Positions 670-64,000 of a stretch of DNA of 64,000 nucleotides are shown piece after piece. The position numbers and the translations under genes are program-made. The notes below the pieces were generated by a model. That model saw nothing but the letters and a program-made list of their open reading frames with translations. It did not search any database and was not told the DNA's origin. Every line of letters begins with the position of its first letter. Position 1 is the first letter of the stretch. The DNA is from Escherichia coli O157:H7 (GTDB lineage Bacteria; Pseudomonadota; Gammaproteobacteria; Enterobacterales; Enterobacteriaceae): the NCBI GenBank assembly GCA_013403045.1, contig GCA_013403045.1_3037.1. One strand, given 5' to 3'.

Positions 670-2727
670 ATGGAACTTATTACAGAATTATTTGACGGCG
701 CTTCGGCGCCGGTTGTTAACTTAAATCCTAAGCATAAAATACCACAAATTTTTGCTATCCAAGCCGGCGAAGAAAGCGTGCTTCCTGGATTTAGATTTTG
801 TACATACACCTCTGGTGGTGATACAAATAAAAATGTTAAGCCAGGCGATAAAATGATGCATATCGTAATGATAGGTGTCAACGAGAAATTATCGCTGGTT
901 AAGCTTAGAAACTTGGGTGGAAATCCAATTGGCGTCATTAATGCCGTTTTTGATACTGCTCTTCAAACAATGAAACAGTATAAAATTGACGCATGCCTAT
1001 TCCGCGTACTAAAAAGTAAAACAAATGGCGCTGCTCGTCAAATGCAAGTTATTGCTGACCGTTTAGTACGTACTAAAGGAGCAGGTCGATATGTTCTTTT
1101 AAAGGAAATCTGGGATTATGATAAAAAGTATGCATATATTATGGTTTACCGTAAAAATGCCAATTTAGAAGACATTCCAGGTGTACCTCCTATTTCAACT
1201 GAGTTATTCACAAAAGTTGAATCAAAGGTTGGTGATGTTTATGTAGACGTTAAAACAGGTAATGCTGTTCCTAAAGCTGTCGCTGTTGCTGCTTCTATTG
1301 CTTTAGAAAATGATAAGCGCACGGACCAAGCTGTTATTCAGAAAACTAAAATTAGTCGTCGATTAGCAGCACAAGCTCAATATTCTACTGTTGATGCTTC
1401 ACTTCAGGGTGATAGCTTCGCTGCTAAGAAATATCAAGAGTTTGAATCTAAAGTTCCGGTATATAAAGCAGAAGGACCAATGAACTCTGGCGTTATTCAG
1501 ATTGGTTCAAACTTCAGCAAAGGAGCTATCGGTGGTATGAGGAGTGCTTCTCGTTTTAAATCTAGCGATTATGAACTAGAAAGTTTCCGAAATCATATTG
1601 CATTAGCCCATGCGCGTTTACGCGATCCATCTATCAAGTTGCAGAGCGATACATCATATCAAGGTTCCCAGGAATATTTAAAGAATAAAGACTTCTTTAA
1701 TTACAAAACTGATAAAATTTTAAGCGATCTTGCTGATATTAATATTTCTAATAGTTTTGATGTTATTAAGAAAATTATCAATGATTTAGTTAAAGGTTCT
1801 AAAGCTACACCAGATGAAAAGACAGCTATTATTCAATTTGTAATGAATGGAATTTATAAATTAATTGATGAATCCGCTGCTCAGGCGTATGAATATGCAA
1901 GCACTGAAGTAACTCCAAAAGGATTGACTCAGGCTGAGTCTGATGTAATTGAAGATTATTGCGCAGATTCGTATGTTGAAATGAACTCATTCCTTTTAGG
2001 TAAACCTGATTCTACACGTGAAGAATATATGGAACGAGCTATTAAACATATTGAGACGCTGGATTCTGCATTCGCTAAAGGTTCAGTTCTTCCTCCAGGA
2101 ACTACACTTTACCGTGGACAAGAAGTTACTTTTAAAACTTTGCGTCATAACATTGAAAATAAAATGTTCTATTTCAAGAACTTCGTATCGACATCACTTA
2201 AACCAAATATCTTTGGTGAGTATGGTAAAAATTATATGGCCTTAGATAATTCCGGAGCAGTATTTTCTGGTGAAGGAGAAGGTTCCGTTGATGCAGAAGA
2301 TTTGATGCATATGGGTAGTCATTCTACATATGCTAATGAAGATGCTGAAACTAGCGTGGGTATGGTAATTAAAGGAGCTGAACGAGTTAAAGTTATCGTT
2401 CCAGGTCATTTATCAGGATTTCCATCAGAAGCTGAAGTTATTCTACCACGTGGAATTTTACTGAAGATTAATAAAGTAAGTACTTACTTTATGAAAGAAA
2501 CTGCTTATAACAAGTATCTAATCGAAGGTACAATCGTTCCTCCTTCTGAACAATTAGAAGAATCAGTATATGATGGCGACCATCTAATGGAAACTGGTGA
2601 AGTTCGTCCAATGGCTGGATTTAATCAATTCCTTGTAGAAGAATCAAAAGAAGAGGAAAACGAAGTTTCTCAAATCTTAGCTTCTTTGGTTAACATCAAC
2701 GGAATGTCTAAAAAGTTCAAAATGTAG
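670..2727 (+). CDS. alt: Alt, packaged RNA polymerase ADP-ribosyltransferase
   Basis: 685 aa, close to T4 Alt length as recalled. N-terminus MELITE resembles a gp21 cleavage site. R / STS / ExE-type ART motifs in the C-terminal domain. AAGGA ribosome-binding site upstream. Confidence 0.9.
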   Translation: MELITELFDGASAPVVNLNPKHKIPQIFAIQAGEESVLPGFRFCTYTSGGDTNKNVKPGDKMMHIVMIGVNEKLSLVKLRNLGGNPIGVINAVFDTALQTMKQYKIDACLFRVLKSKTNGAARQMQVIADRLVRTKGAGRYVLLKEIWDYDKKYAYIMVYRKNANLEDIPGVPPISTELFTKVESKVGDVYVDVKTGNAVPKAVAVAASIALENDKRTDQAVIQKTKISRRLAAQAQYSTVDASLQGDSFAAKKYQEFESKVPVYKAEGPMNSGVIQIGSNFSKGAIGGMRSASRFKSSDYELESFRNHIALAHARLRDPSIKLQSDTSYQGSQEYLKNKDFFNYKTDKILSDLADINISNSFDVIKKIINDLVKGSKATPDEKTAIIQFVMNGIYKLIDESAAQAYEYASTEVTPKGLTQAESDVIEDYCADSYVEMNSFLLGKPDSTREEYMERAIKHIETLDSAFAKGSVLPPGTTLYRGQEVTFKTLRHNIENKMFYFKNFVSTSLKPNIFGEYGKNYMALDNSGAVFSGEGEGSVDAEDLMHMGSHSTYANEDAETSVGMVIKGAERVKVIVPGHLSGFPSEAEVILPRGILLKINKVSTYFMKETAYNKYLIEGTIVPPSEQLEESVYDGDHLMETGEVRPMAGFNQFLVEESKEEENEVSQILASLVNINGMSKKFKM

Positions 2728-13911: not shown

Positions 13912-14592
13912 ATGATAGATAAAGATTATATTGCAGAGCTGAAGGCTCTTGATGATAACAAAGAAGCTAAAGCTAAATTAGCTGAATATGCTGAACAGTT
14001 TGGTATAAAGGTCAAAAAGAATAAATCTTTTGATAATATCGTTGTTGATATTGAAGAAGCCCTCCAGAAGCTCGCTAGTGAACCTATGCCAGAGACTGAT
14101 GGGTTATCTATTAAAGACTTAATTGATGCTGCTGATGCTGCAGAGGGATTAAAATATGACGATGAAGAAGTTAATCCAGAAGCAGCACTTCTGATTGATT
14201 CTCCAGTTAAATCTGATATTAAAATTGAAGTGGTAGAAACGGATAAAATTCCTGAAAATACTGATGTTTTGATTGAAGACACTCCTTTTGTTGAAGAAAA
14301 GTTTGAACAAGCTGTAGATAAGATTATTGAATCTGAAAAGCCGTCTGTATTTACTCTTCCGGAAAACTTTAGCCCGAATCTTCAGCTGATTGGAAAAAAT
14401 CCAGGATTCTGCACTGTTCCTTGGTGGATTTATCAATGGATTGCTGAAACTCCGGATTGGAAATCTCACCCAACTAGTTTTGAGCATGCGTCAGCACACC
14501 AAACTTTATTTAGCTTAATTTATTACATTAATCGCGATGGATCAGTTTTAATTCGTGAAACACGCAACTCTTCTTTCGTAACATTAAAATAA
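13912..14592 (+). CDS. inh: Inh, inhibitor of prohead protease
   Basis: 226 aa; synteny and length match T4 Inh. Confidence 0.85.
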   Translation: MIDKDYIAELKALDDNKEAKAKLAEYAEQFGIKVKKNKSFDNIVVDIEEALQKLASEPMPETDGLSIKDLIDAADAAEGLKYDDEEVNPEAALLIDSPVKSDIKIEVVETDKIPENTDVLIEDTPFVEEKFEQAVDKIIESEKPSVFTLPENFSPNLQLIGKNPGFCTVPWWIYQWIAETPDWKSHPTSFEHASAHQTLFSLIYYINRDGSVLIRETRNSSFVTLK

Positions 14593-14601
14593 GGATAACT
14601 T

Positions 14602-16026
14602 ATGGCTTTTACAGTTGATATAACTCCTAAAACACCGACAGGGGTTATTGATGAAACCAAGCAGTTTACTGCTGCACCCAGTGGTCAAACTGAAGGTGGA
14701 ACTATTACCTATGCTTGGAGTGTAGATAATGTTCCACAGGATGGAGCTGAAGCAACTTTTAGTTATGTACTAAAAGGACCTGCCGGTCAAAAGACTATTA
14801 AAGTCGTTGCAACAAATACAGTTCCAGAATCTGAATCTGAACCTGAAACAGCAGAAGATACGACAACTATCACAGTTCAAAATAAGACACAGACTACTAC
14901 AATAACAGTAACTCCTGATAGTCCTTCGGAAGGAGTAATCGGAACAGCTGTTCAATTTACCGCTGCCTTAGATTCACAGCCGCCAGGTGCATCTGCTACG
15001 TATCAATGACACGTCGACGGTTCTCCTGTGGGAGAAGCAACTGACGCTACATTTAACTATACTCCTGCCACAAGCGGAGTTAAAAAAATTAAGTGTGTAG
15101 CTCAAGTAACTGCGACAGATTATGATACAAAGACCGTTACTTCTGACGAAGTGTCGCTGACTGTTAACAAGAAAACCCAAGCGACTACTTTAGTTGTAAC
15201 TCCTAATAGTCCTTCAGCTGGAGTAATTGGAACTCCAGTTCAATTTACTGCTGCCTTAGCTTCTCAACCTGATGGAGCGTCTGCTACATATAAGTGGTAT
15301 GTAGATGATTCTCAAATTGGTGGAGAAACTAACTCTACATTTAACTATACTCCAACTACAAGTGGAGTAAAAAGAATTAAATGTGTAGCGCAAGTAACTG
15401 CAGAAAATTACAATGAAAAGGAAGTTACTTCTAATGAAGTATCATTGACAGTTAATAAGAAGACAATGAATCCACAGGTTACATTGACTCCTCCTTCTAT
15501 TAACGTTCAGCAAGATGCTTCGGCTACATTTACGGCTAATGTTACTGGAGCACCTGAAGCAGCACAAATTACTTATTCATGGAAGAAAGATTCTTCTCCT
15601 GTAGAAGGGTCAACTAACGTATACACCGTTGACACCTCATCTATTGGAAGTCAAACTATTGAAGTTACTGCTGTCGTTACAGCAACCGACTATGATAGTA
15701 AAACAGTTAAAACAACAGGTCAAGTTCAGGTAACTGATAAAGTTGCTCCGGAACCAGAAGGTGAATTGCCTTATGTTCATCCTCTTCCACATCGTACTTC
15801 AGCTTATATCTGGTGCGGTTGGTGGGTTATGGATGAAATCCAAAAAATGACTGAAGAAGGTAAAGATTGGAAAACTGAAGATCCAGATAGTAAGTACTAC
15901 TTGCATCGTTATACGCTTCAGAAGATGATGAAAGATTATTCAGAAGTTGATGTTCAAGAATCACGTAATGGATACATCATCCATAAAACTGCTTTAGAAA
16001 CTGGTATCATCTATACTTATCCATAA
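14602..16026 (+). CDS. hoc: Hoc outer capsid protein with Ig-like repeats, interrupted by an in-frame TGA at 15007-15009 (possible pseudogene or leaky opal)
   Basis: N-terminus MAFTVDITPKTPTGVIDETKQFTA and C-terminus ...HKTALETGIIYTYP match T4 Hoc. The two track ORFs (14602-15009 and 15028-16026) are in the same frame, separated by one TGA. Confidence 0.8.
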
Positions 16027-16030
16027 TCGA

Positions 16031-16058
16031 AAGGGGCTTCGGCCCCTTTCTTCATTTT
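16031..16058 (+). terminator. rho-independent terminator after hoc (UUCG tetraloop)
   Basis: AAGGGGC-TTCG-GCCCCTT followed by TCTTCATTTT. Confidence 0.7.
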
Positions 16059-16115
16059 GAAAGCACACAAAACACAATCAGAAAATGATGTATATAATGG
16101 CACCAACTCGATAAC

Positions 16116-16331
16116 ATGAGATTGATTATGAGAACTGAAGTTGTGGTGTTTACACTTCATGAGTCTGGAAAGTCATTCATTGAAATTGCTCGTGAATTAA
16201 ACTTACAGGCGAAAGAAGTGGCTGTATTATGGGCTCGAGCTATGACTGCAAAGAATAAATTTGAGACTCGAGAAAAAGTTGTCTATAGAAAAAGACACAT
16301 TAATAAAAAGGTGAAAAATGGAACAGTATGA
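16116..16331 (+). CDS. hypothetical protein (24.3-like)
   Basis: 71-aa ORF at the T4 24.3 position. Confidence 0.55.
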   Translation: MRLIMRTEVVVFTLHESGKSFIEIARELNLQAKEVAVLWARAMTAKNKFETREKVVYRKRHINKKVKNGTV

Positions 16332-52230: not shown

Positions 52231-52746
52231 ATGAATATTTGTTTAGGTACTACAATTCCGCAGGGTTACGTAATTGATGTCACTACCTGGGAAAATGATG
52301 GTGACAACTATAAAACTAAAACACTGTTTGGCGTAGAAGAGCATGAAATCTTACAGTTCCAATATCTTTTAAAGAAGTTTAAAAGCAGACATTCTAGTAC
52401 TAAAGCTGAACGTTATTGTGGTAATGGCTTGTTCAGCGAGCAATCGCTTTTTATTTATGAATACTTGGTTGAAGGACTGTTCTCAGAACAACTTTATCCA
52501 GAATTCATTAAAAAGGTCTTTGATATAGAAGTTGACCTTGGTAATAAATCCGAAGAAGATGAAGAACGTGTATTTGACTTATTCTTTGTGAATGGTAATA
52601 AGATATTTGAAGGCCTTATTGATATTCTTGGTCATGCTTCTGAATATTATGACTATGATTTCTTGCGTGTAGTTGAGAGTGTTAAATACTCTTATATAGA
52701 AGAAGAAATTGTTTTGCCGACCGTTAAAATGTTTAATTTGCTTTAA
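52231..52746 (+). CDS. hypothetical protein
   Basis: ORF; ATG at 52231 after the GTG listed by the track. Confidence 0.55.
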   Translation: MNICLGTTIPQGYVIDVTTWENDGDNYKTKTLFGVEEHEILQFQYLLKKFKSRHSSTKAERYCGNGLFSEQSLFIYEYLVEGLFSEQLYPEFIKKVFDIEVDLGNKSEEDEERVFDLFFVNGNKIFEGLIDILGHASEYYDYDFLRVVESVKYSYIEEEIVLPTVKMFNLL

Positions 52747-52843
52747 GAATTATTTGTTATTATTAACTCATACCGCACTGATTAATACCCTCTATCATCA
52801 GAGAAAGTCCAATAGGCAGAACAGGAGATTGGATTCTTTTAAT

Positions 52844-52984
52844 TATGCTTGTTAATATTTTGACAGCAGCAATATTATCTGGGATATGGTGCGCGTTCAT
52901 TGAAATGCCATGGCGGTTACGCAGACAGCAAAAGATTTTTGATGAAAAGAAATATACTCAAAATTTAAATAACTTTATCACTGA

Positions 52985-53002
<18 letters not shown>
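52844..53002 (+). CDS. possible small membrane peptide (52 aa)
   Basis: Short ORF with a hydrophobic N-terminus, overlapping the nudE start; weak ribosome-binding site. Confidence 0.25.
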
Positions 53003-53972
<970 letters not shown>

Positions 53973-53977
53973 AGTTA

Positions 53978-54006
53978 TTTACTTTCTCCTAGAATTGTGA
54001 TAGTAT
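53978..54006 (+). promoter_or_regulatory. early promoter (TTTACT, 17-nt spacer, TAGTAT) upstream of internal-protein gene
   Basis: Motif read from sequence. Confidence 0.5.
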
Positions 54007-54066
54007 ATTCACAGTTACTTGAAGAGATAAATTATTAATTAAAATATTTACATTTAAAGGATACAC

Positions 54067-54540
54067 ATGAAAACATATCAAGAATTTATTACTGAAGCAG
54101 CTATTAATTCTCAAATTATTGCTGAATCTTTTACTGATCTTTTGAAATTTAAAAAAGGTCAAAAAATCACTGCTGTATTGGATGATGGTACAGAAGTTGA
54201 GATGGATGTACAGGGATATAATTATGCAGTAGATGGAAAACTGTATAATAAATCTCATGCTAAATTTGATTCATTTGACGACTTTGTTAATACAGTTGAA
54301 GATGAAAAAACTCGTAGATCCATTGCAACTGGCGACGCTAAGGTTCTTATGGCACATGGCCATGAACGCATCCGCGCTAAACAGAATAAAATGGGCGAAG
54401 ATAATTTTGCATTAGTTGGTTATCAATCTGGTAAACAAACTTATGGCTATCAGCGTACTGCTACCATGTATAACAAAAATGGTAAAATTGCCTTTGTGAA
54501 TAGTAAAGGTTCTATTCAGTACGTTAAATCGTTCAAATAA
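54067..54540 (+). CDS. internal protein (IPII/IPIII-like), capsid-targeted
   Basis: N-terminus MKTYQEFITEAAINSQIIAE has capsid-targeting sequence features and I-x-E sites; early promoter upstream. Confidence 0.7.
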   Translation: MKTYQEFITEAAINSQIIAESFTDLLKFKKGQKITAVLDDGTEVEMDVQGYNYAVDGKLYNKSHAKFDSFDDFVNTVEDEKTRRSIATGDAKVLMAHGHERIRAKQNKMGEDNFALVGYQSGKQTYGYQRTATMYNKNGKIAFVNSKGSIQYVKSFK

Positions 54541-54645
54541 GCAAATAAGAAATATGGGAACAAGCTGGACCTCATGATTCTGTGAGGGATTCCCGCCAAC
54601 CTGTAATAAGGTCGAGCCCAAGTGCGGTAATGGGTAAATACAGAA

Positions 54646-55233
54646 ATGGACAATTCATGCGCCATGGAATGGCCCAAATTTAGAGAGAATAAAATGAGAA
54701 CATTTTTAACTGGTCCTTATCTATCCCTGATGAATGCTTTTACACACCATTCTGATGCTAGAGTAGAAGAAATTTGTAAAAACGATTATATCCCACCATT
54801 TGAAGAATTACTTAAACAGTATTGCACACTTCGACTAGATGGTGGACGTCAATCCGGTAAATCAATTGCTGTGACTAACTTTGCTGCTAATTGGTTGTAT
54901 GATGGCGGAACAGTTATCGTTCTTTCTAATACTTCAGCTTACGCTAAAATTTCTGCAAATAACATTAAAAAGGAATTTTCGCGTTATTCTAATGATGATA
55001 TACGTTTTCGTTTATTTACTGATTCTGTGCGCAGTTTTATTGGTAATAAAGGAAGCAAGTTCAGAGGTTTATCGCTTTCGCGAATTTTGTATATAATTGA
55101 TGAGCCTGTCAAATCTCCTGATATGGATAAGATTTATAGTGTCCATATTGAGACTGTACACTACTGCTGTAATAGTAAATGTTGTATTGGTGGTATTACT
55201 CGTCCACAGTTTTTCGTAATCGGAATGCAATGA
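54646..55233 (+). CDS. small P-loop NTPase, unknown function
   Basis: Walker A GGRQSGKS and Walker B ILYIIDEP; C-terminal Cys cluster HYCCNSKCC. Start may be the internal Met at about 54694. Confidence 0.55.
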   Translation: MDNSCAMEWPKFRENKMRTFLTGPYLSLMNAFTHHSDARVEEICKNDYIPPFEELLKQYCTLRLDGGRQSGKSIAVTNFAANWLYDGGTVIVLSNTSAYAKISANNIKKEFSRYSNDDIRFRLFTDSVRSFIGNKGSKFRGLSLSRILYIIDEPVKSPDMDKIYSVHIETVHYCCNSKCCIGGITRPQFFVIGMQ

Positions 55234-55559
55234 TGACAGACACTCAGCTTTTCGAATATCTTTATTTTTCGCCAAAAACTATTAAAAATAAATTGGTGAA
55301 TCATTTTGAAATTTTGGCAAATAACAACGTCTTGAGCGAATTTTATCCTAAGCAATACAAATTACAAAAAGGCGTATTCAAAGGATGCAGAGTTTTGTGT
55401 ACTGCTCCTAATGCACGGCTAATGAATAAAATTCCATATTTTACCATGGAATTTATTGATGGTCCTTTTAAAGGACTAATCACACAGAGTTTAATGGCAT
55501 ATGATTCTGAGCCATTTTTAATTAAAGAACAATCTTGGATAAATTTATTTTCTAATTGA
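55230..55559 (+). CDS. hypothetical protein
   Basis: ATG overlaps the upstream stop (ATGA), suggesting translational coupling. Confidence 0.5.
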
Positions 55560-55566
55560 GGTTTAT

Positions 55567-55929
55567 ATGAAAGCATATCAAATTCTTGAAGGCACACATA
55601 AAGGTACTATTTATTTTGAAGATGGTATTCAAGCACGAATTATTGTCTCTAAAACCTTTAAAGAGGACTCTTTTGTAGACCCAGAAATTTTCTATGGTTT
55701 GCATGCCCGTGAAATTGAAATTGAGCAACAGCCTACAGTTAAAATTGAAGGTGGTCAACACCTGAACGTTAACGTTCTGCGTCGCGAAACTCTGGAAGAT
55801 GCAGTTAAGCATCCGGAAAAATATCCGCAGCTGACCATCCGTGTATCCGGTTATGCAGTTCGCTTTAACTCTCTGACTCCGGAACAGCAGCGCGACGTTA
55901 TCGCTCGTACCTTTACTGAGAGTTTGTAA
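55567..55929 (+). CDS. autonomous glycyl radical cofactor (GrcA/YfiD-like; T4 Y06I-like)
   Basis: C-terminal 60 aa ([60 protein letters not shown]) matches E. coli GrcA from memory, including the radical Gly in RVSGYAVRF. Confidence 0.85.
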
Positions 55930-56150
55930 TGGCAAAGATAATTATTGAAGGTTCTAAAGATGTGCTAAATGCTTTCGCCGAGTGGTTTAGTAATTCAGGC
56001 GAACAGCAATTTAATGAAGCCTGGAATATGGGTGATATTGATGGAATTTATCCTACGACAGAAATTTCTGTTCAAGGATATGGCATTCATGAACCTATTC
56101 GTTTAGTTGAATATGATTTATGTACTGGTGAGGAAGTCAAATATGATTGA
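55929..56150 (+). CDS. hypothetical protein
   Basis: 73-aa ORF, start overlapping the upstream stop. Confidence 0.5.
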   Translation: MAKIIIEGSKDVLNAFAEWFSNSGEQQFNEAWNMGDIDGIYPTTEISVQGYGIHEPIRLVEYDLCTGEEVKYD

Positions 56151-56409
56151 AGACATTAAAGGTTATAAGCCGCATACTGAAGAGAAAATCGGTAAAGTGA
56201 ATGCTATTAAAGACGCTGAAGTTCGTTTAGGACTTATCTTTGACGCTTTATACGATGAATTCTGGGAAGCACTAGATAATTGTGAAGATGATGAACTCGC
56301 GAAGAATTATGCTGAAAGCCTCGATCAGTTAACTATTGCTAAAACGAAACTCAAAGAAGCCAGTATGTGGGCTTGTCGTGCAGTGTTCCAACCAGAGGAA
56401 AAATACTAA
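56143..56409 (+). CDS. hypothetical protein
   Basis: ORF; internal ATG at 56143 overlaps the upstream stop. Confidence 0.5.
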
Positions 56410-56687
56410 TGGCTCAATTAAGTGCAGGGTTTGGTTATGAGTATTATACTGCACCTCGTCGTGTATCTGCCGCTCCTAAGAAAATTCAAAGTCTTGATGA
56501 CTTCCAGGAAGTAGTCCGTAAAGCTTTTCAGGACTATGCACGTTATCTTAAAGAAGATTCACAGGACTGTCTCGAAGAAGATGAAATTGCTTACTATGAG
56601 CAGCGTCTTGAACAGCTTAAAAACTTACATGAGGTTCGTGCAGAAGTTTCAAAGTCTATGAATAAATTGATTAGATTTAAAGAATAA
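56409..56687 (+). CDS. hypothetical protein
   Basis: ORF; TAATG start/stop overlap. Confidence 0.5.
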
Positions 56688-56689
56688 CT

Positions 56690-56719
56690 GTTTACTTTTC
56701 CTCTTGACTGTGGTATAAT
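56690..56719 (+). promoter_or_regulatory. early promoter (GTTTACT, 17-nt spacer, TATAAT) upstream of regB
   Basis: Motif read from sequence, about 30 nt before the regB ATG. Confidence 0.6.
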
Positions 56720-56746
56720 TTTTCTATCAGTTAAGAGGAGAATAAC

Positions 56747-57208
56747 ATGACTATCAATACAGAAGTTTTTATCCGTCGAAATAAGCTTCGTCGTCACTTT
56801 GAGTCGGAGTTTCGTCAAATTAACAATGAGATTCGTGAGGCATCAAAAGCAGCAGGAGTCTCATCGTTTCATCTAAAATATTCTCAACATCTTCTTGATC
56901 GTGCAATTCAACGGGAGATTGATGAGACATATGTTTTTGAATTATTCCATAAAATAAAAGACCATGTTTTAGAAGTTAATGAATTCCTGAGTATGCCTCC
57001 GCGTCCTGACATTGACGAGGATTTTATTGATGGGGTTGAATATCGTCCTGGACGTTTAGAAATCACAGATGGAAATCTTTGGCTTGGATTTACAGTTTGT
57101 AAGCCTAATGAGAAGTTTAAAAACCCGTCACTTCAATGCAGGATGGCAATTATCAACAGTCGTCGTTTACCAGGAAAGGCTTCTAAAGCAGTAATTAAAA
57201 CTCAATGA
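56747..57208 (+). CDS. regB: RegB site-specific endoribonuclease
   Basis: 153 aa, MTINTEVFIRRNKLRRHFESEF matches T4 RegB from memory; early promoter upstream. Confidence 0.9.
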   Translation: MTINTEVFIRRNKLRRHFESEFRQINNEIREASKAAGVSSFHLKYSQHLLDRAIQREIDETYVFELFHKIKDHVLEVNEFLSMPPRPDIDEDFIDGVEYRPGRLEITDGNLWLGFTVCKPNEKFKNPSLQCRMAIINSRRLPGKASKAVIKTQ

Positions 57209-57215
57209 GGTAAGC

Positions 57216-57761
57216 ATGAGAAAAGCACTACTCGCTGGTCTATTGGCCATTTCAATGATGGCACATAGCTCCGAGCATACTTTCAGTAATGTCCAACTCG
57301 ATAACATGCGTTACGCGTATCAATTCGGGGAACAATTTTCTAAGGATGGAAAATATAAAACACACAAAAATATCCACAAGAGCGGATTAGGTCATATAAT
57401 GGCTGCTATTTTATGGCAAGAAAGCTCTGGCGGAGTTAATTTAAAATCTAAACCAAAGCATCACGCCTACGGAATGTTCCAAAATTATTTGCCTACTATG
57501 CGAGCAAGAGTTAAGGAACTTGGTTATAATATGACCGATGCTGAAATAAAAAGAATGTTGAATAAACGATCCAATTCAGCTTCCTGGGCGTACATTGAAC
57601 TTTCTTATTGGTTAAATATACATAAGGGCGATATAAGAAAAGCAATATCCTCTTATAATTCGGGATGGAATGTTAAAGCAGGTTCTAAATATGCTTCTGA
57701 AGTCCTAGAAAAGGCTAATTACCTTAAAAATAATAAACTTTTGGAAATAGTAAATGACTAA
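57216..57761 (+). CDS. secreted lytic transglycosylase-like protein (SLT domain)
   Basis: N-terminal signal peptide MRKALLAGLLAISMMAHS; ILWQESSGG ... YGMFQ resembles the SLT catalytic region. Confidence 0.6.
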   Translation: MRKALLAGLLAISMMAHSSEHTFSNVQLDNMRYAYQFGEQFSKDGKYKTHKNIHKSGLGHIMAAILWQESSGGVNLKSKPKHHAYGMFQNYLPTMRARVKELGYNMTDAEIKRMLNKRSNSASWAYIELSYWLNIHKGDIRKAISSYNSGWNVKAGSKYASEVLEKANYLKNNKLLEIVND

Positions 57762-58101
57762 AATTTTGGTTTTATGTATAGGATTAATTTCATTTTCTGC
57801 TTCTGCGTCAGCAGATACATCATATACTGAAATTAGAGAATATGTAAACCGCACTGCGGCAGATTATTGTGGGAAAAATAAAGCATGCCAAGCTGAATTT
57901 GCACAGAAATTAATATATGCATATAAAGACGGAGAAAGAGATAAATCAAGTAGATACAAAAACGATACATTATTAAAACGATATGCTAAAAAGTGGAATA
58001 CCTTAGAATGTTCAGTTGCGGAGGAGAAAGATAAAGCCGCTTGTCATTCAATGGTTGACCGTTTGGTAGATTCTTATAATCGAGGATTGAGTACTAGATG
58101 A
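57754..58101 (+). CDS. small secreted Cys-containing protein
   Basis: Signal peptide MTKILVLCIGLISFSASASA; four Cys residues. Confidence 0.5.
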   Translation: MTKILVLCIGLISFSASASADTSYTEIREYVNRTAADYCGKNKACQAEFAQKLIYAYKDGERDKSSRYKNDTLLKRYAKKWNTLECSVAEEKDKAACHSMVDRLVDSYNRGLSTR

Positions 58102-58565
58102 TTGTAAAATATATCAAGGGCGATATTGTCGCCCTTTTCGCTGAAGGTAAAAATATTGCGCATGGATGTAATTGTTTTCACACGATGAAAGCTGGAGTCG
58201 CAGGTCAATTAACTAAAGCTTTCCCTAAAATTTTGGAAGCTGATAAATTACAGACTGAATGGGGTGATGTAACTAAACTTGGTTCTTATTCAGTCTATGA
58301 AAAATACTTTAGGACTCATAAAGCTTACTGCTTTAATCTTTATACTCAATTTCAACCAGGGCCAAATTTTGAGTATTCCGCTTTAATGAATTGTATGTTA
58401 GAATTAAATGAGTTTGGTAAAAATAAACTGATTAAACCTACAATCTATATGCCTAGGATTGGTGCAGGCATAGGTAAAGGGAACTGGGATATTATTGAGG
58501 GGATTTTAGATACATATTCTTCTAAATTAGAAATTGTGATTGTTGATTGGGAACCGTTATTATGA
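58098..58565 (+). CDS. macro-domain protein (putative ADP-ribose binding / hydrolase)
   Basis: IVKYIKGDI ... NIAHGCNCFHTMKAGVAGQL and IYMPRIGAGIGKGNW resemble macro-domain motifs (GDIT ... VNAAN ... GGGV ... FPxISTGxYG). Confidence 0.55.
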   Translation: MIVKYIKGDIVALFAEGKNIAHGCNCFHTMKAGVAGQLTKAFPKILEADKLQTEWGDVTKLGSYSVYEKYFRTHKAYCFNLYTQFQPGPNFEYSALMNCMLELNEFGKNKLIKPTIYMPRIGAGIGKGNWDIIEGILDTYSSKLEIVIVDWEPLL

Positions 58566-58774
58566 ATATACATTATCCACATCCATATGACCCAAAGAAT
58601 AAGGCAGTAATTATTCGTCAATGGGAACGCATTTGTCGTACTAAATGTCCAATTAATAGTCCACATGATGTAGATAAAGACTACATTGGAACATTCGTTG
58701 AATATACCTTTATTGATAAGAAAGGTCGTAAACAGCATGTAGAAGAATACTGCTTAAAGGTTACATGGTTATGA
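58562..58774 (+). CDS. hypothetical protein
   Basis: ORF; likely start MNIHYPHPYD. Confidence 0.5.
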   Translation: MNIHYPHPYDPKNKAVIIRQWERICRTKCPINSPHDVDKDYIGTFVEYTFIDKKGRKQHVEEYCLKVTWL

Positions 58775-58977
58775 GCCAAACTAGTATTCTTAAAAATGCC
58801 CACTGTGAAAAGTGTAAATGGCCGGTTGTTTTTGCTTTATGCAACGATGAAATGGCTTGTGATTTCGATTATTGGTGCTATTGTTCTAATAAAGGATGCA
58901 TCAATCATAAAGGTGAAGGATTTTATTCGGGATTTTATCCTTATCCTGATTTCGTTAAAGAAGGTAAACCAAAATGA
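58765..58977 (+). CDS. small Cys-rich (putative zinc-binding) protein
   Basis: About 10 Cys in 70 aa (CEKCKW ... C ... C ... CYC ... C). Confidence 0.5.
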   Translation: MVMSQTSILKNAHCEKCKWPVVFALCNDEMACDFDYWCYCSNKGCINHKGEGFYSGFYPYPDFVKEGKPK

Positions 58978-59150
58978 ATGATGATTTAAAATATCAATTA
59001 TTACGTGAACTTGATGTTTTGATTGAACTTTCTGCGCAAAAAGGATTTATAATTGGATCAGGTCAAAAAGACCCCAACGGTCATTCAATCGTAGCGGTTA
59101 TGAATCAGAAACGAGTCATTTTAAAACTTTTGGGGATTGACATACTGTGA
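58974..59150 (+). CDS. small hypothetical protein (58 aa)
   Basis: ATG overlaps the upstream stop; found by reading the sequence, not in the ORF track. Confidence 0.4.
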   Translation: MNDDLKYQLLRELDVLIELSAQKGFIIGSGQKDPNGHSIVAVMNQKRVILKLLGIDIL

Positions 59151-59332
59151 GTCTAAGCAAAGAACAAAAAGATAAATTGTTTGAGCTTATCCATGAACTT
59201 CTAGATGAGCATATAGAAGCAAACACCTTTTATGATGAATACGGCCCGCTATCTCCCGAACAGCAGGAAGAATTTGCTGATCGGTTTGATAAGAAAGAAA
59301 ATGAATTAATAGCTTATGTGAATACGCTTTAA
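59147..59332 (+). CDS. small acidic hypothetical protein
   Basis: ORF with GTG start overlapping the upstream stop. Confidence 0.4.
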   Translation: MSLSKEQKDKLFELIHELLDEHIEANTFYDEYGPLSPEQQEEFADRFDKKENELIAYVNTL

Positions 59333-59341
59333 GAAGGTGAT

Positions 59342-59923
59342 ATGGCGAGTTTAATTTTTACTTATGCAGCAATGAATGCTGGAAAATCTGCTTCTCTTTT
59401 GACTGCTGCACATAATTATAAAGAACGTGGAATGAGTGTATTAGTTCTTAAGCCTGCTATTGATACTCGCGATTCTGTCTGTGAAGTTGTTTCTCGCATT
59501 GGAATTAAACAGGAAGCGAATATTATTACAGATGATATGGATATTTTCGAGTTCTATAAATGGGCTGAAGCACAAAAAGATATTCATTGCGTATTTGTAG
59601 ATGAAGCTCAGTTTTTAAAAACTGAACAGGTGCATCAATTAAGTCGAATTGTTGATACATATAATGTTCCTGTTATGGCTTATGGATTAAGGACTGATTT
59701 CGCTGGAAAATTGTTTGAAGGTTCTAAAGAACTTTTAGCGATTGCAGATAAACTTATTGAACTAAAGGCAGTTTGTCATTGTGGTAAAAAAGCGATTATG
59801 ACAGCTCGATTAATGGAAGATGGAACACCAGTTAAAGAAGGTAATCAAATCTGTATTGGTGATGAAATTTATGTTTCTTTGTGTAGAAAACATTGGAATG
59901 AATTAACTAAAAAGCTCGGTTAG
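59342..59923 (+). CDS. tk: thymidine kinase
   Basis: 193 aa; P-loop AAMNAGKSASLL; Cys cluster CHCGKKA. Confidence 0.95.
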   Translation: MASLIFTYAAMNAGKSASLLTAAHNYKERGMSVLVLKPAIDTRDSVCEVVSRIGIKQEANIITDDMDIFEFYKWAEAQKDIHCVFVDEAQFLKTEQVHQLSRIVDTYNVPVMAYGLRTDFAGKLFEGSKELLAIADKLIELKAVCHCGKKAIMTARLMEDGTPVKEGNQICIGDEIYVSLCRKHWNELTKKLG

Positions 59924-59965
59924 TGCAAAAGTTATAAATAGGTTTATCTAACTAAAGGGGTATAT

Positions 59966-60178
59966 ATGCTACAATTAACTGAAAAGCAACTTCGCAATCT
60001 TACTGTTCTTCAATTAGATGAAATTCGTAGGGAAGTTGGAAATATCATTTCAGCTTTGCGTCGAGAAGTATCACTCAACCAATCTCCGGCAGACTATACT
60101 AGATTGCGAAATTTTGAAAAATACCTTGATAAAGTTAAGGCCGTGCATCGGCATAAAGTAAATACAGGACAAAAATGA
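59966..60178 (+). CDS. hypothetical protein
   Basis: 70-aa ORF between tk and rI. Confidence 0.5.
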
Positions 60179-60190
60179 TAGGAGGCCTTT

Positions 60191-60484
60191 ATGGCCTTAA
60201 AAGCAACGGCACTTTTTGCCATGCTAGGATTGTCATTTGTTTTATCTCCATCGATTGAAGCGAATGTCGATCCTCATTTTGATAAATTTATGGAATCTGG
60301 TATTAGGCACGTTTATATGCTTTTTGAAAATAAAAGCGTAGAATCGTCTGAACAATTCTATAGTTTTATGAGAACGACCTATAAAAATGACCCGTGCTCT
60401 TCTGATTTTGAATGTATAGAACGAGGCGCGGAGATGGCACAATCATACGCTAGAATTATGAACATTAAATTGGAGACTGAATGA
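60191..60484 (+). CDS. rI: lysis inhibition regulator RI
   Basis: 97 aa with N-terminal signal-anchor MALKATALFAMLGLSFVLSPSIEA; length and position match T4 RI. Confidence 0.85.
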   Translation: MALKATALFAMLGLSFVLSPSIEANVDPHFDKFMESGIRHVYMLFENKSVESSEQFYSFMRTTYKNDPCSSDFECIERGAEMAQSYARIMNIKLETE

Positions 60485-60867
60485 AATTCAGCGACTTTTC
60501 ACAAAGTGGAAAACCTTCAAAGGCAGATGAATACTTAGGTTTATTAATGGCTGCACAAGCTTATTTTCATTCTGCACATTTTGAAACTAAAAGTTATGCT
60601 AGACACAAAGCATACGATTTTATTTTCTCCGAGTTGCCAGATTTGATTGATAAATTTGGTGAGCAATATTTGGGGTATTCTGGTAGAAAATACACGCCTT
60701 CAATTCCAGATGCCAGTAAACTTCCTACCGACACAATTAAAATGATTGATCGCATACTAGACCAATCTAACAGCATTTATAAAGAAATGCCTCCAGCCAT
60801 TCAAAGCACGATAGATGATATTACTGGGATGTTTTACCAGAGTAAGTATCTTCTTTCCCTCGAATAA
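60481..60867 (+). CDS. hypothetical protein (rI.-1-like)
   Basis: 128-aa ORF, ATGA-coupled to rI; terminator downstream. Confidence 0.6.
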
Positions 60868-60871
60868 CATT

Positions 60872-60896
60872 AGTCTCCTTCGGGAGACTTTTTTCA
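60872..60896 (+). terminator. rho-independent terminator after rI.-1 (UUCG tetraloop)
   Basis: AGTCTCC-TTCG-GGAGACT followed by TTTTTTCATTTT. Confidence 0.7.
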
Positions 60897-60904
60897 TTTT
60901 ACCG

Positions 60905-60934
60905 GTTTACTTTCCGTTTGAGCTGTGGTACTAT
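60905..60934 (+). promoter_or_regulatory. early promoter (GTTTACT, 17-nt spacer, TACTAT)
   Basis: Motif read from sequence upstream of ORF 60963. Confidence 0.5.
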
Positions 60935-60962
60935 ACAACTATCGGATAAAGAGGAGAACATC

Positions 60963-61151
60963 ATGAAAATTGAAGCACTCAATCAAGAAGGAAATATCTA
61001 CGTCATCATTAATGGTGATTTTTTCGTCGACATGGATGAAGTTACTAGTGAAGAACTTGTAGAATTTCTTAAGAAACGTTATAATATGTGTGATGAAGTT
61101 GCAACTCACATGGCGTGTGCAATATTCTCTCTTTCATATGTGGTGGAATAA
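60963..61151 (+). CDS. small hypothetical protein
   Basis: AGAGGAG ribosome-binding site then ATG (MKIEA...); early promoter upstream. Confidence 0.45.
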
Positions 61152-61354
61152 TGATTAGTATCGAACAAGCGGATAAGATTAAAGAATTGGTAGCTTTAAT
61201 TCGTAAAGCAGACGAGGAACTTAGTGACTTTGCTTGGTTTTCGTCAGGCATTGCAAATAAAGGCATTGATGAACTTGAAGCTAAAGTTGATAATGCTTTA
61301 GAAGCGTTAGATATGTTTCTTGATGAAATTATCGATCATAATACGAGAGTTTAA
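61151..61354 (+). CDS. small hypothetical protein
   Basis: TAATG-coupled ORF. Confidence 0.45.
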   Translation: MISIEQADKIKELVALIRKADEELSDFAWFSSGIANKGIDELEAKVDNALEALDMFLDEIIDHNTRV

Positions 61355-61356
61355 TT

Positions 61357-61551
61357 ATGCTAACACGCGAACAGTTTGAAAAAATCATTAAATTAGCACG
61401 TGATATTGAAATAGATTCATATCAATTGGCAGTTGAGCATTGTGAAGGATATTCATACGACGGTATAGAAGCAGCTAAAAAGGATTTGGACAAATCTAAA
61501 GCTAAGTTAGTTCAATATCTTGAAATGATTAGGTGGAATAATGAAAACTGA
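61357..61551 (+). CDS. small hypothetical protein
   Basis: 64-aa ORF. Confidence 0.45.
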   Translation: MLTREQFEKIIKLARDIEIDSYQLAVEHCEGYSYDGIEAAKKDLDKSKAKLVQYLEMIRWNNEN

Positions 61552-61711
61552 AAAGCAGATGTTTTTAATGAAACTAATTGAAGAATATGCTAATGCAGTT
61601 TCTGACTATGAGTGTTCTTCTCGGGAAAGAGGTACAGCTTTCGCAAAGGAAGAAATGAAAATCATGGTTGATGCTCACACAAAGCTTCAGAATTTTATTG
61701 AAAACGTCATT
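61541..61711 (+). CDS. small hypothetical protein (56 aa)
   Basis: ATG overlapping the end of the upstream ORF; read from sequence. Confidence 0.3.
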
Positions 61712-61716
61712 TAATG

Positions 61717-61746
61717 GTTTACAAGTTGGCAAGGTTATGGTATAGT
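61717..61746 (+). promoter_or_regulatory. early promoter (GTTTACA, 17-nt spacer, TATAGT)
   Basis: Motif read from sequence; followed by an AAGGAG ribosome-binding site and a 34-codon hydrophobic mini-ORF (about 61775-61879). Confidence 0.5.
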
Positions 61747-61881
61747 AATCTTGTCAACTGCCAAGGAGAAGAGAATGAAAGTTTTGTTTGTTGTGTATGT
61801 GATGATTCAATATAATTACCCAATGTTTACTTATAATCTGGTGAACAACATTATTGATATTATTCAAAGGAGTATGTAATT

Positions 61882-62439
61882 GTGAGTGAGTCGAAGAGAA
61901 TCAATATGAAACGATTAGTATTAGAAGTTAGTCCGCTTTTTGGTGAATTGACTATAGAAAAAGTAAATAACATGTATCGTTTGACGCAAGAAGACGATAT
62001 GCTATATTTTACGCCTAGTGAAATCATTCATTTAACCCAAATTGAATATCCTTATACTGATAAAATAGTAAGCATCAATGATGAGCACAAAATTCATTTT
62101 TATTCTTCATGCCCAGGATTTAATATTAAAAGTGAGTCAATGTGTTTATCAGTTATCCATTGGGATAGTTTTATAGCTAAGATTAAATATTTTTATTATT
62201 CTAATGAAAGAAAACATAGTTTAAAATGGCTCAAAAATTGCAATGCTATTATTACTAACGCTTGCAATCAGAATGATGAAACTCTTTTAAATGTATCAAA
62301 ATGTTATGAAGAGGGAGATGTCTTAACTATTCGCCAAATTGACGATTTTCGATCACATATCATTACATTTACCAAAGACGAAGCTATTGCGCTAAAGACT
62401 TATCTTGATTCTGTTATTCCAACTATGATTTCAAAGTGA
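61882..62439 (+). CDS. hypothetical protein, paralog of 62446-62967
   Basis: ORF; C-terminal motif shared with the next gene. Confidence 0.5.
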   Translation: MSESKRINMKRLVLEVSPLFGELTIEKVNNMYRLTQEDDMLYFTPSEIIHLTQIEYPYTDKIVSINDEHKIHFYSSCPGFNIKSESMCLSVIHWDSFIAKIKYFYYSNERKHSLKWLKNCNAIITNACNQNDETLLNVSKCYEEGDVLTIRQIDDFRSHIITFTKDEAIALKTYLDSVIPTMISK

Positions 62440-62445
62440 GGAAAT

Positions 62446-62967
62446 ATGTTTATTTCAAGTGGAAGTGGTTTAATTCGTGTTGAATTTAAAAATGACATCT
62501 TTCTTATTCAAGGAGATGATATTATTAAAATGAGTTATGACGAAATCAAGAAAATTTGTCATGCTCTTGAAAGTCATGGAAAAGTGAACGCTGTTATTGA
62601 TATTGGCGATTTATGGGTGACACTTTATGAAGTATCCGAAGGATTTAACATTGAAGATGAAAATAACATTTTAGCTATTGATAAAAGAAGTGATTTGTTT
62701 GATGTATTAAAAGTTTATGAACAGTCAAATGGCGGAAGAAAAGCTGCATTGATTTATCAAAAACCGCATTCATGTGGAACTGCTTCAATCATTTCAAATA
62801 TTGAAGATGAAGTTGATACTTATATGTGTGTTTTAAAAGCTGGTGGTGACCGTCATCCGGATTTTATTTCTATTCGTCAAAACAATGGAGAAATTTCATT
62901 ATCAAAATCAGAAGCTGAAGCTATGATTAAGTATTTAACAACTGTTACGCCTTCAATGAAAGGATAA
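62446..62967 (+). CDS. hypothetical protein, paralog of 61882-62439
   Basis: ORF; C-terminus ISLSKSEAEAMIKYLTTVTPSMKG resembles ITFTKDEAIALKTYLDSVIPTMISK of the upstream gene. Confidence 0.5.
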   Translation: MFISSGSGLIRVEFKNDIFLIQGDDIIKMSYDEIKKICHALESHGKVNAVIDIGDLWVTLYEVSEGFNIEDENNILAIDKRSDLFDVLKVYEQSNGGRKAALIYQKPHSCGTASIISNIEDEVDTYMCVLKAGGDRHPDFISIRQNNGEISLSKSEAEAMIKYLTTVTPSMKG

Positions 62968-62969
62968 TT

Positions 62970-63431
62970 ATGATTATTAATGAAAACTCTTGGCACTATA
63001 AATTATTCAAATTGTTTAACGATGAATGGCAACGACCTAAGACACTATGCGCATATTTTTGGTCTATTGCCATTCCTACATTTTTCGTTTCTATTTTTGG
63101 ATGTGCTATACTCGTAGGGCTAACAATTATTTGTGCAGAAAGCCTACAACGTTGGCTTATTTTCGGTAGTTTATGGACTCTTCTTCCATCGGCATTTATA
63201 CTTGCACTTTTGGTTGTTTTACTTATTATCGGTTCATTTGTTATTCCTGCACATTTGCGTGAAAAATATAAAGATTATAAATGGAAAAAGGATTATGCTT
63301 TACACGTAGAAAATATTGATAGGGCGTATAAAGGTTTACCTCCTATTCAACCCAAGAAATCGGTTATCGTTGAATTTTTAAAAGCTCGTAAAGCTAAAGT
63401 ATGTCCTGTTATTGAATATAAGGCTGAATGA
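62970..63431 (+). CDS. membrane protein with two predicted transmembrane helices
   Basis: Two long hydrophobic segments. Confidence 0.5.
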   Translation: MIINENSWHYKLFKLFNDEWQRPKTLCAYFWSIAIPTFFVSIFGCAILVGLTIICAESLQRWLIFGSLWTLLPSAFILALLVVLLIIGSFVIPAHLREKYKDYKWKKDYALHVENIDRAYKGLPPIQPKKSVIVEFLKARKAKVCPVIEYKAE

Positions 63432-64000
63432 TGAAAACAGTAATGAAAAGCTATTTTGGTAGTCATCTTTATGGAACTTCTACTCCAGAATCTGATGTAG
63501 ATTTTAAAGAAATCTTTGTTCCTCCTGCTCGCGATATTCTTATTGGAAATGTTAAAGAGCACATGAGTAAAAATACTAACAACACATCATCTAAAAACAC
63601 TAAAGATGATATTGACCATGAACTATACAGTCTTAAATATTTCTTTAAATTAGCAGCAGATGGTGAAACTGTAGCATTGGATATGCTTCACACTCCACCT
63701 GAACTAGTGGTTAAATCTGATTTGCCTGATGTGTGGAAGTTTATTCAAGACAACCGTTCTCGTTTTTATACGACTAACATGAAATCCTATTTAGGATATG
63801 TCCGCAAGCAAGCTTCTAAATACGGTGTCAAGGGTTCTCGTTTGGCTGCATTACGTGATGTATTGAAAGTAGTTAATCAAATCCCTGAGCAGTGGATTGA
63901 TTACCAAGAAGATGGTTCTATTAAGCAGCGTCGCACTAAAGTTGAAGATATTAAGCATCGTCTTCCAGAAAACGAATTCTGTGAATGGGTGTTCCATAAT
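63428..64000 (+). CDS. nucleotidyltransferase-fold protein (partial; 3' end beyond window)
   Basis: Open frame from the ATGATG at about 63428 to the window end (191 codons, no stop). FGSHLYGTSTPESDVDF fits the GS ... DxD motif of Pol-beta-type nucleotidyltransferases. Confidence 0.5.
   Translation, partial: MMKTVMKSYFGSHLYGTSTPESDVDFKEIFVPPARDILIGNVKEHMSKNTNNTSSKNTKDDIDHELYSLKYFFKLAADGETVALDMLHTPPELVVKSDLPDVWKFIQDNRSRFYTTNMKSYLGYVRKQASKYGVKGSRLAALRDVLKVVNQIPEQWIDYQEDGSIKQRRTKVEDIKHRLPENEFCEWVFHN

Follow-up and report, generated by a model that had tools for sequence, protein, structure and literature searches.

A premature TGA at a conserved tryptophan codon of hoc in a copy of the Escherichia phage AR1 genome

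In the 64,000-nt stretch of DNA analysed here (the window), two consecutive open reading frames (ORFs) on the plus strand together resemble the capsid protein Hoc and are parted by a single TGA. The locus could hold one hoc gene with a nonsense mutation, a gene whose stop codon is recoded or read through, two separate genes, or a sequence error, and we asked which of these best accounts for it. The window proved to be a near-identical copy of part of the genome of Escherichia phage AR1, whose natural host is O157:H7. Comparison with this and other genomes leads us to favour, at a probability of roughly 55%, a private spontaneous nonsense mutation in AR1 hoc that changed Trp136 (TGG) to an opal codon (TGA).

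Results

Two ORFs form a single interrupted hoc frame

The starts of the two ORFs lie 426 nt, or 142 codons, apart (15028 − 14602), which places both in one frame, and the joined frame of 475 codons contains exactly one internal stop, the TGA at codon 136 (Table 1). An uninterrupted ORF for Hoc is therefore not found. The codons around the stop are UAU CAA UGA CAC, and the base that follows it, C at 15010, gives a UGA-C context. Once the A at 15009 is changed back to G, the translated frame is identical to AR1 Hoc (BAI83192.1 / YP_009167995.1; 474 aa, 51 kDa), in line with the original prediction that the two ORFs make up one Hoc-like protein.

On alignment evidence, the homology of the frame product to T4 Hoc is unambiguous. 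The solved T4 Hoc (PDB 5vf3_Z) matches it at E=5e-214, with residues 195-474 aligned to T4 residues 97-376 and residues 1-109 to T4 residues 1-107, and Pfam matches comprise PKD, Ig_3 and I-set. The gene order at the locus is inh-hoc-24.3-24.2-rnlB, as annotated for the identical locus in AR1, wV7 and Sf21.

AR1-type Hoc has four Ig-like domains, one more than T4 Hoc. A TYxW motif is common to all four, and the stop replaces the Trp of the second domain (D2a), an invariant core residue. In the other three Ig domains the matching residues are W39, W232 and W327, all encoded by TGG. D2a and its neighbour D2b share 73% amino acid and 75% nucleotide identity at an offset of 96 codons. The comparison of the stop with a TGG in this paralogous repeat, made in the original prediction, holds, but the position given for it (15283-15291) was wrong: the motif ASATYKWYVDD spans 15277-15309, and its TGG lies where Table 1 lists W232.

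The truncated product that the frame encodes comprises D1 and the first 39 residues of D2a. In T4, the capsid-binding domain of Hoc is C-terminal, and the residues that contact the capsid are Y293, H295, W306, W309 and W310 (PMC10385173). These correspond here to Y391, H393, W404, W407 and W408, all of which are encoded downstream of the TGA.

An intrinsic terminator directly follows the hoc stop codon, so that any polarity caused by the premature stop would be confined to hoc. We conclude that 14602-16026 should be annotated as one interrupted hoc (a pseudogene or nonsense allele) and not as two genes.

Table 1 Features of the hoc locus and of its product; positions are those of the window unless given as residues
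Feature	Position	Strand	Details
Shine-Dalgarno AAGGA of the true hoc start (ATG 14602)	14591..14595	+	Duplex with 16S rRNA 3' end, -6.0 kcal/mol
hoc reading frame	14602..16026	+	475 codons including internal TGA and terminal TAA
Upstream ORF	14602-15009	+	ATG start, 135 aa, 14.0 kDa, ends in TGA
Premature opal TGA (W136*)	15007..15009	+	A at 15009; G in AR1 and relatives
Frame after the stop	15010..16023	+	Translated only via read-through or restart
Downstream ORF	15028-16026	+	GTG start, 332 aa
GTG used by the ORF finder	15028..15030	+	Anti-SD duplex -2.8 kcal/mol, against -6.0 (hoc) and -6.1 (inh)
Paralogous Trp codon TGG (W232) in D2b	15295..15297	+
Intrinsic terminator hairpin	16029..16050	+	9-bp stem, 6 GC pairs, then T-run
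Ig-like domain D1	residues 1-96
Ig-like domain D2a	residues 97-193
Ig-like domain D2b	residues 194-290
Ig-like domain D3	residues 291-386
C-terminal capsid-binding domain	residues 387-474

Two further ORF arrangements were noted in the window. A 47-aa ORF on the minus strand (16017-16160) overlaps the hoc stop codon and the terminator. It corresponds to AR1_183 of the AR1 annotation ('No matched to nr'), and its counterpart is left unannotated in wV7, typing phage 7 and Sf21; AR1_183 is probably a spurious gene call. Elsewhere, the same-frame pair of ORFs at 19-666 and 670-2727 (+) is also split by one stop. AR1 annotates these as two tandem full-length paralogues of alt (ADP-ribosyltransferase), AR1_202 and AR1_201, which identifies the pair as a tandem duplication and not a split gene.

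The TGA allele is confined to the present copy of AR1 among the sequences compared

A megablast search with the locus returned Escherichia phage AR1 at 99.9%. The window corresponds to two blocks of the AR1 genome (AP011113.1), both in reverse complement: window positions 1-52800 match 122756..69957 and positions 52801-64000 match 63894..52695. Over the 64,000 aligned bases there is a single mismatch, at 15009, which is A here and G in AR1. The same change is the only difference between the two hoc genes in 1425 nt, and it is a G->A transition on the plus strand (C->T on the other strand). AR1, wV7, O157 typing phage 7 and Sf21 all have an annotated intact hoc of 1425 nt in which the site reads CAATGGCAC; with G at this position in all four, the TGG->TGA transition that had been proposed is borne out. 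Comparison with close phages, suggested at the same time as a check, gave TGG and Trp in every relative examined.

Wider searches returned the TGG version only. Among 50,697 phage records there was no 100% match to the 71-nt segment that contains the stop; the 14 top-ranked records carried one mismatch each, and in the four of these that we inspected base by base the mismatch was a G at the stop site. The Trp is invariant in 13/13 members of the 90% protein cluster that cover this column, and the split products of 135 and 332 aa were found neither in a collection of 15 billion protein sequences nor in a gene index covering 153 billion positions. In a pattern scan of metagenomes, the sole contig with the same 26-mer has TGG. 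An exact-pattern scan of IMG/VR for a 38-mer with the TGA gave no match, as did a control scan in which the third position of the codon was left free; with even the TGG version missing, that collection is without AR1-type hoc and says nothing about the allele. A literature search for AR1 hoc variants returned nothing relevant. Because the deposited AR1 genome reads TGG, the TGA allele is, as judged from these comparisons, private to the present copy of the sequence.

The two blocks of the alignment are separated by 6,062 bp of AR1 (AP011113.1 63895..69956) that are missing at window position 52800|52801. The missing segment holds all 10 AR1 tRNA genes, segD, e.3-e.8 and the 5' part of ar1_129. 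The two sides of the gap meet bluntly, without microhomology, and the junction was not found in 602 matching phage records; an exact-pattern scan of IMG/VR for it also gave no match, which is equally uninformative in a collection without AR1-type hoc. Ambiguous bases that could explain removal of the segment are absent from it in AR1. The coordinate of the junction is round (52800 = 33 x 1600, in a window of 40 x 1600), which casts doubt on how the sequence was put together. The gap looks like a construction artefact; by analogy with T4, in which deletions of the tRNA region are tolerated, it could be a genuine deletion of that kind.

Real mutation or data error

From the sequence by itself, a real mutation and a data error are indistinguishable. 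That the phage really has TGG, and that the A at 15009 arose as a base-call, consensus or editing error, is a possibility we take seriously without favouring it. The deposited AR1 genome has TGG, the TGA allele occurs nowhere else in the collections that could be searched informatively, and the only other difference from AR1, the blunt gap at a round coordinate, suggests a processed sequence. Against this, an error falling at random would rarely produce what we see: among all possible single substitutions in the window, 4.7% introduce a stop into a long ORF, and 0.10% do so in hoc. Position 15009 lies outside any homopolymer, and the gene is dispensable and of a kind in which real nonsense alleles recur. 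The paralogous repeats all carry G at the site, so that mis-mapping between them cannot yield an A. Repeat-driven mis-assembly or gene conversion from D1, D2b or D3 is ruled out for the same reason, all three paralogous codons being TGG.

Expected translation of the interrupted frame

If the nonsense mutation is real, ribosomes that start at ATG 14602 would be expected to reach the UGA, where RF2 would release a fragment of 135 aa and 14 kDa. As this fragment would lack the capsid-binding domain, Hoc-free capsids are expected, and the resulting virions would remain viable, like those of T4 hoc nonsense mutants. Hoc is described as dispensable by Ishii and Yanagida (1977), as cited in PMC10385173. 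The earlier expectation that a hoc null would be tolerated fits the viable T4 mutant HAP1 and the three independently disrupted hoc genes of relatives described below.

A small, host-dependent fraction of ribosomes may read the UGA-C with Trp-tRNA(Trp). Since the original residue is Trp, such misreading would restore it and yield authentic full-length Hoc at low occupancy. In E. coli, UGA read-through reflects competition of Trp-tRNA(Trp) with RF2 (PMC10570021), and PMC5289835 describes termination as inefficient when C follows the stop, especially at UGA, in agreement with the leaky context pointed out in the original prediction; in the same paper, misreading by tRNA-Trp is reported to be strongest with A, not C, at position +4. 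For a native gene, UGA read-through was visible with the K-12 allele of RF2 and undetectable with the B-type RF2 (PMC5373646). By analogy, trace full-length Hoc from read-through is plausible, and its level should depend on the RF2 allele of the host. The allele would then be a leaky null, neither a split gene nor a case of programmed recoding.

Two known systems offer partial parallels. In phage Q-beta, a UGA read by tRNA-Trp extends the capsid-associated protein A1 (Weiner and Weber 1973, as cited in PMC5289835), and the trace read-through proposed here would likewise depend on Trp-tRNA(Trp) outcompeting RF2 at a UGA. The Q-beta stop is conserved and its extended product essential, whereas the stop in AR1 hoc is private, unconserved and placed on a former Trp codon. 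The prfB gene shares the UGA-C tetranucleotide, a documented inefficient RF2 signal (PMC5289835), but in prfB it serves a programmed +1 frameshift, together with a slippery CUU and an SD-like element upstream, whereas the AR1 stop follows UAU CAA.

Read-through would gain a different meaning if the opal codon had been kept by selection, a low and physiology-dependent reading by tRNA-Trp serving to tune the number of Hoc fibres per capsid. Several points are compatible with this: UGA-C is a weak termination context (PMC5289835), the residue inserted would be the wild-type Trp, the extent of UGA read-through differs among single cells and with the state of the host (PMC10570021), and Hoc binds hexamer centres independently, which makes partial occupancy physically possible (PMC10385173). 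We nevertheless consider a selected leaky allele quite unlikely. The stop is not conserved, with TGG in all relatives; a single private SNP carries no selection signal; and the structure downstream, a hairpin of -14.1 kcal/mol, is not significant against shuffled sequences (z = -0.86). On the same value we rejected a SECIS element or a stimulatory hairpin downstream of the stop, and the lack of conservation speaks against programmed read-through. The more elaborate version, a bet-hedging dosage switch in which a maintained leaky opal and host-state-dependent misreading of UGA-C leave few and variable Hoc fibres on each capsid, would treat Hoc as a mucus- or surface-adhesion protein, and we regard it as more improbable still.

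Decoding of the TGA as an amino acid, through code reassignment, a suppressor tRNA or selenocysteine, has only the placement of the codon on a Trp in its favour, and we give it next to no weight. Within the window, TGA terminates eighteen further long ORFs, and since all other aligned bases agree with AR1, there is no second in-frame TGA. There are 0 tRNA genes in the window, none of the ten tRNAs of AR1 has a UCA anticodon, and a significant hairpin after the codon is absent. Code reassignment is effectively refuted by the TGA-ended ORFs together with the lack of a UGA-reading tRNA in AR1. Nothing supports programmed read-through or code reassignment, and the allele is outside every programmed-recoding family.

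The locus might also be a true split gene, in which a soluble N-terminal Ig fragment is made alongside a 332-aa capsid-bound protein that starts at GTG 15028, by independent initiation or by termination-reinitiation. The GTG lies 18 nt past the stop in the same frame, and the product would keep complete D2b, D3 and capsid-binding domains. This arrangement is highly improbable, however: all intact relatives use the GTG as an internal Val codon, its product would begin within a broken Ig domain, and the 332-aa protein is on record nowhere. No Shine-Dalgarno sequence precedes the GTG (Table 1), for which reason we rejected initiation there and regard the start as an ORF-finder artefact. Of the proposal that a second ORF runs from this codon, the shared frame thus stands, while the start is not credible. 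Nor does the in-frame ATG that follows, at 15466, offer a better start, its SD duplex being -2.4 kcal/mol. The nonsense mutation that we prefer would be an ordinary knock-out of a dispensable gene and, like the alternative of a base-call error, involves no new mechanism.

hoc lesions in T4 and in relatives of AR1

The closest precedent is T4 HAP1, a spontaneous hoc mutant (C496T, Q166ochre) that is viable and has a capsid without Hoc (PMC3127757, PMC10580926). As in HAP1, a single C:G->T:A transition places a stop inside the string of Ig domains and upstream of the capsid-binding domain, in a gene that is otherwise wild-type (here, one difference from AR1 hoc). The HAP1 stop is an ochre at a Gln of the 376-aa, three-Ig T4 Hoc, whereas the present one is an opal at a core Trp of the 474-aa, four-Ig AR1 Hoc, and lies in the extra Ig domain. 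An opal followed by C would be expected to be leakier than the HAP1 stop, and its misreading would restore the native residue. We class the present allele with HAP1 as a further nonsense allele of hoc, found in AR1 instead of T4.

Close Tequatrovirus relatives carry independent inactivating lesions in the same gene. In vB_EcoM-UFV09 hoc the codon for Q63 is changed (CAA->TAA), in vB_EcoM_OE5505 hoc that for Q226 (CAA->TAA), and SfPhi01 hoc has a +1 frameshift; in all three phages hoc is annotated as two or more fragments. The lesions differ from ours in position and type, and a TGA at codon 136 occurs in none of them. On this sequence comparison, the pattern suggests that hoc has been lost repeatedly in isolates.

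Among the 40 best matches, at least three independent lineages have a disrupted hoc. Truncated Hoc fragments of 184-281 aa occur in the same 90% protein cluster. The four hoc nonsense alleles considered here (15009, UFV09, OE5505 and HAP1) are all C:G->T:A changes, CAA->TAA in three and TGG->TGA in one. Transitions of this type are the class expected from cytosine deamination.

If the allele is real, this stock of AR1 is naturally deficient in Hoc, possibly with some leakiness, and it adds to the signs of repeated hoc loss in cultured T4-like phages. Hoc influences how phages aggregate and adhere to mucus and mammalian cells, as well as their immunogenicity and use in phage display, and an O157:H7 biocontrol phage without Hoc could therefore differ in vivo.

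A further variation in Hoc architecture was seen in a metagenome contig (UMIC01022929.1, positions 554-1405), which encodes a 283-aa Hoc with two Ig domains only. In this protein D2a joins D3 directly after the conserved WHVDGSPV motif, a layout that looks like the result of in-frame recombination between Ig repeats. The number of Ig domains among close relatives is thus two in this contig, three in T4 and four in AR1.
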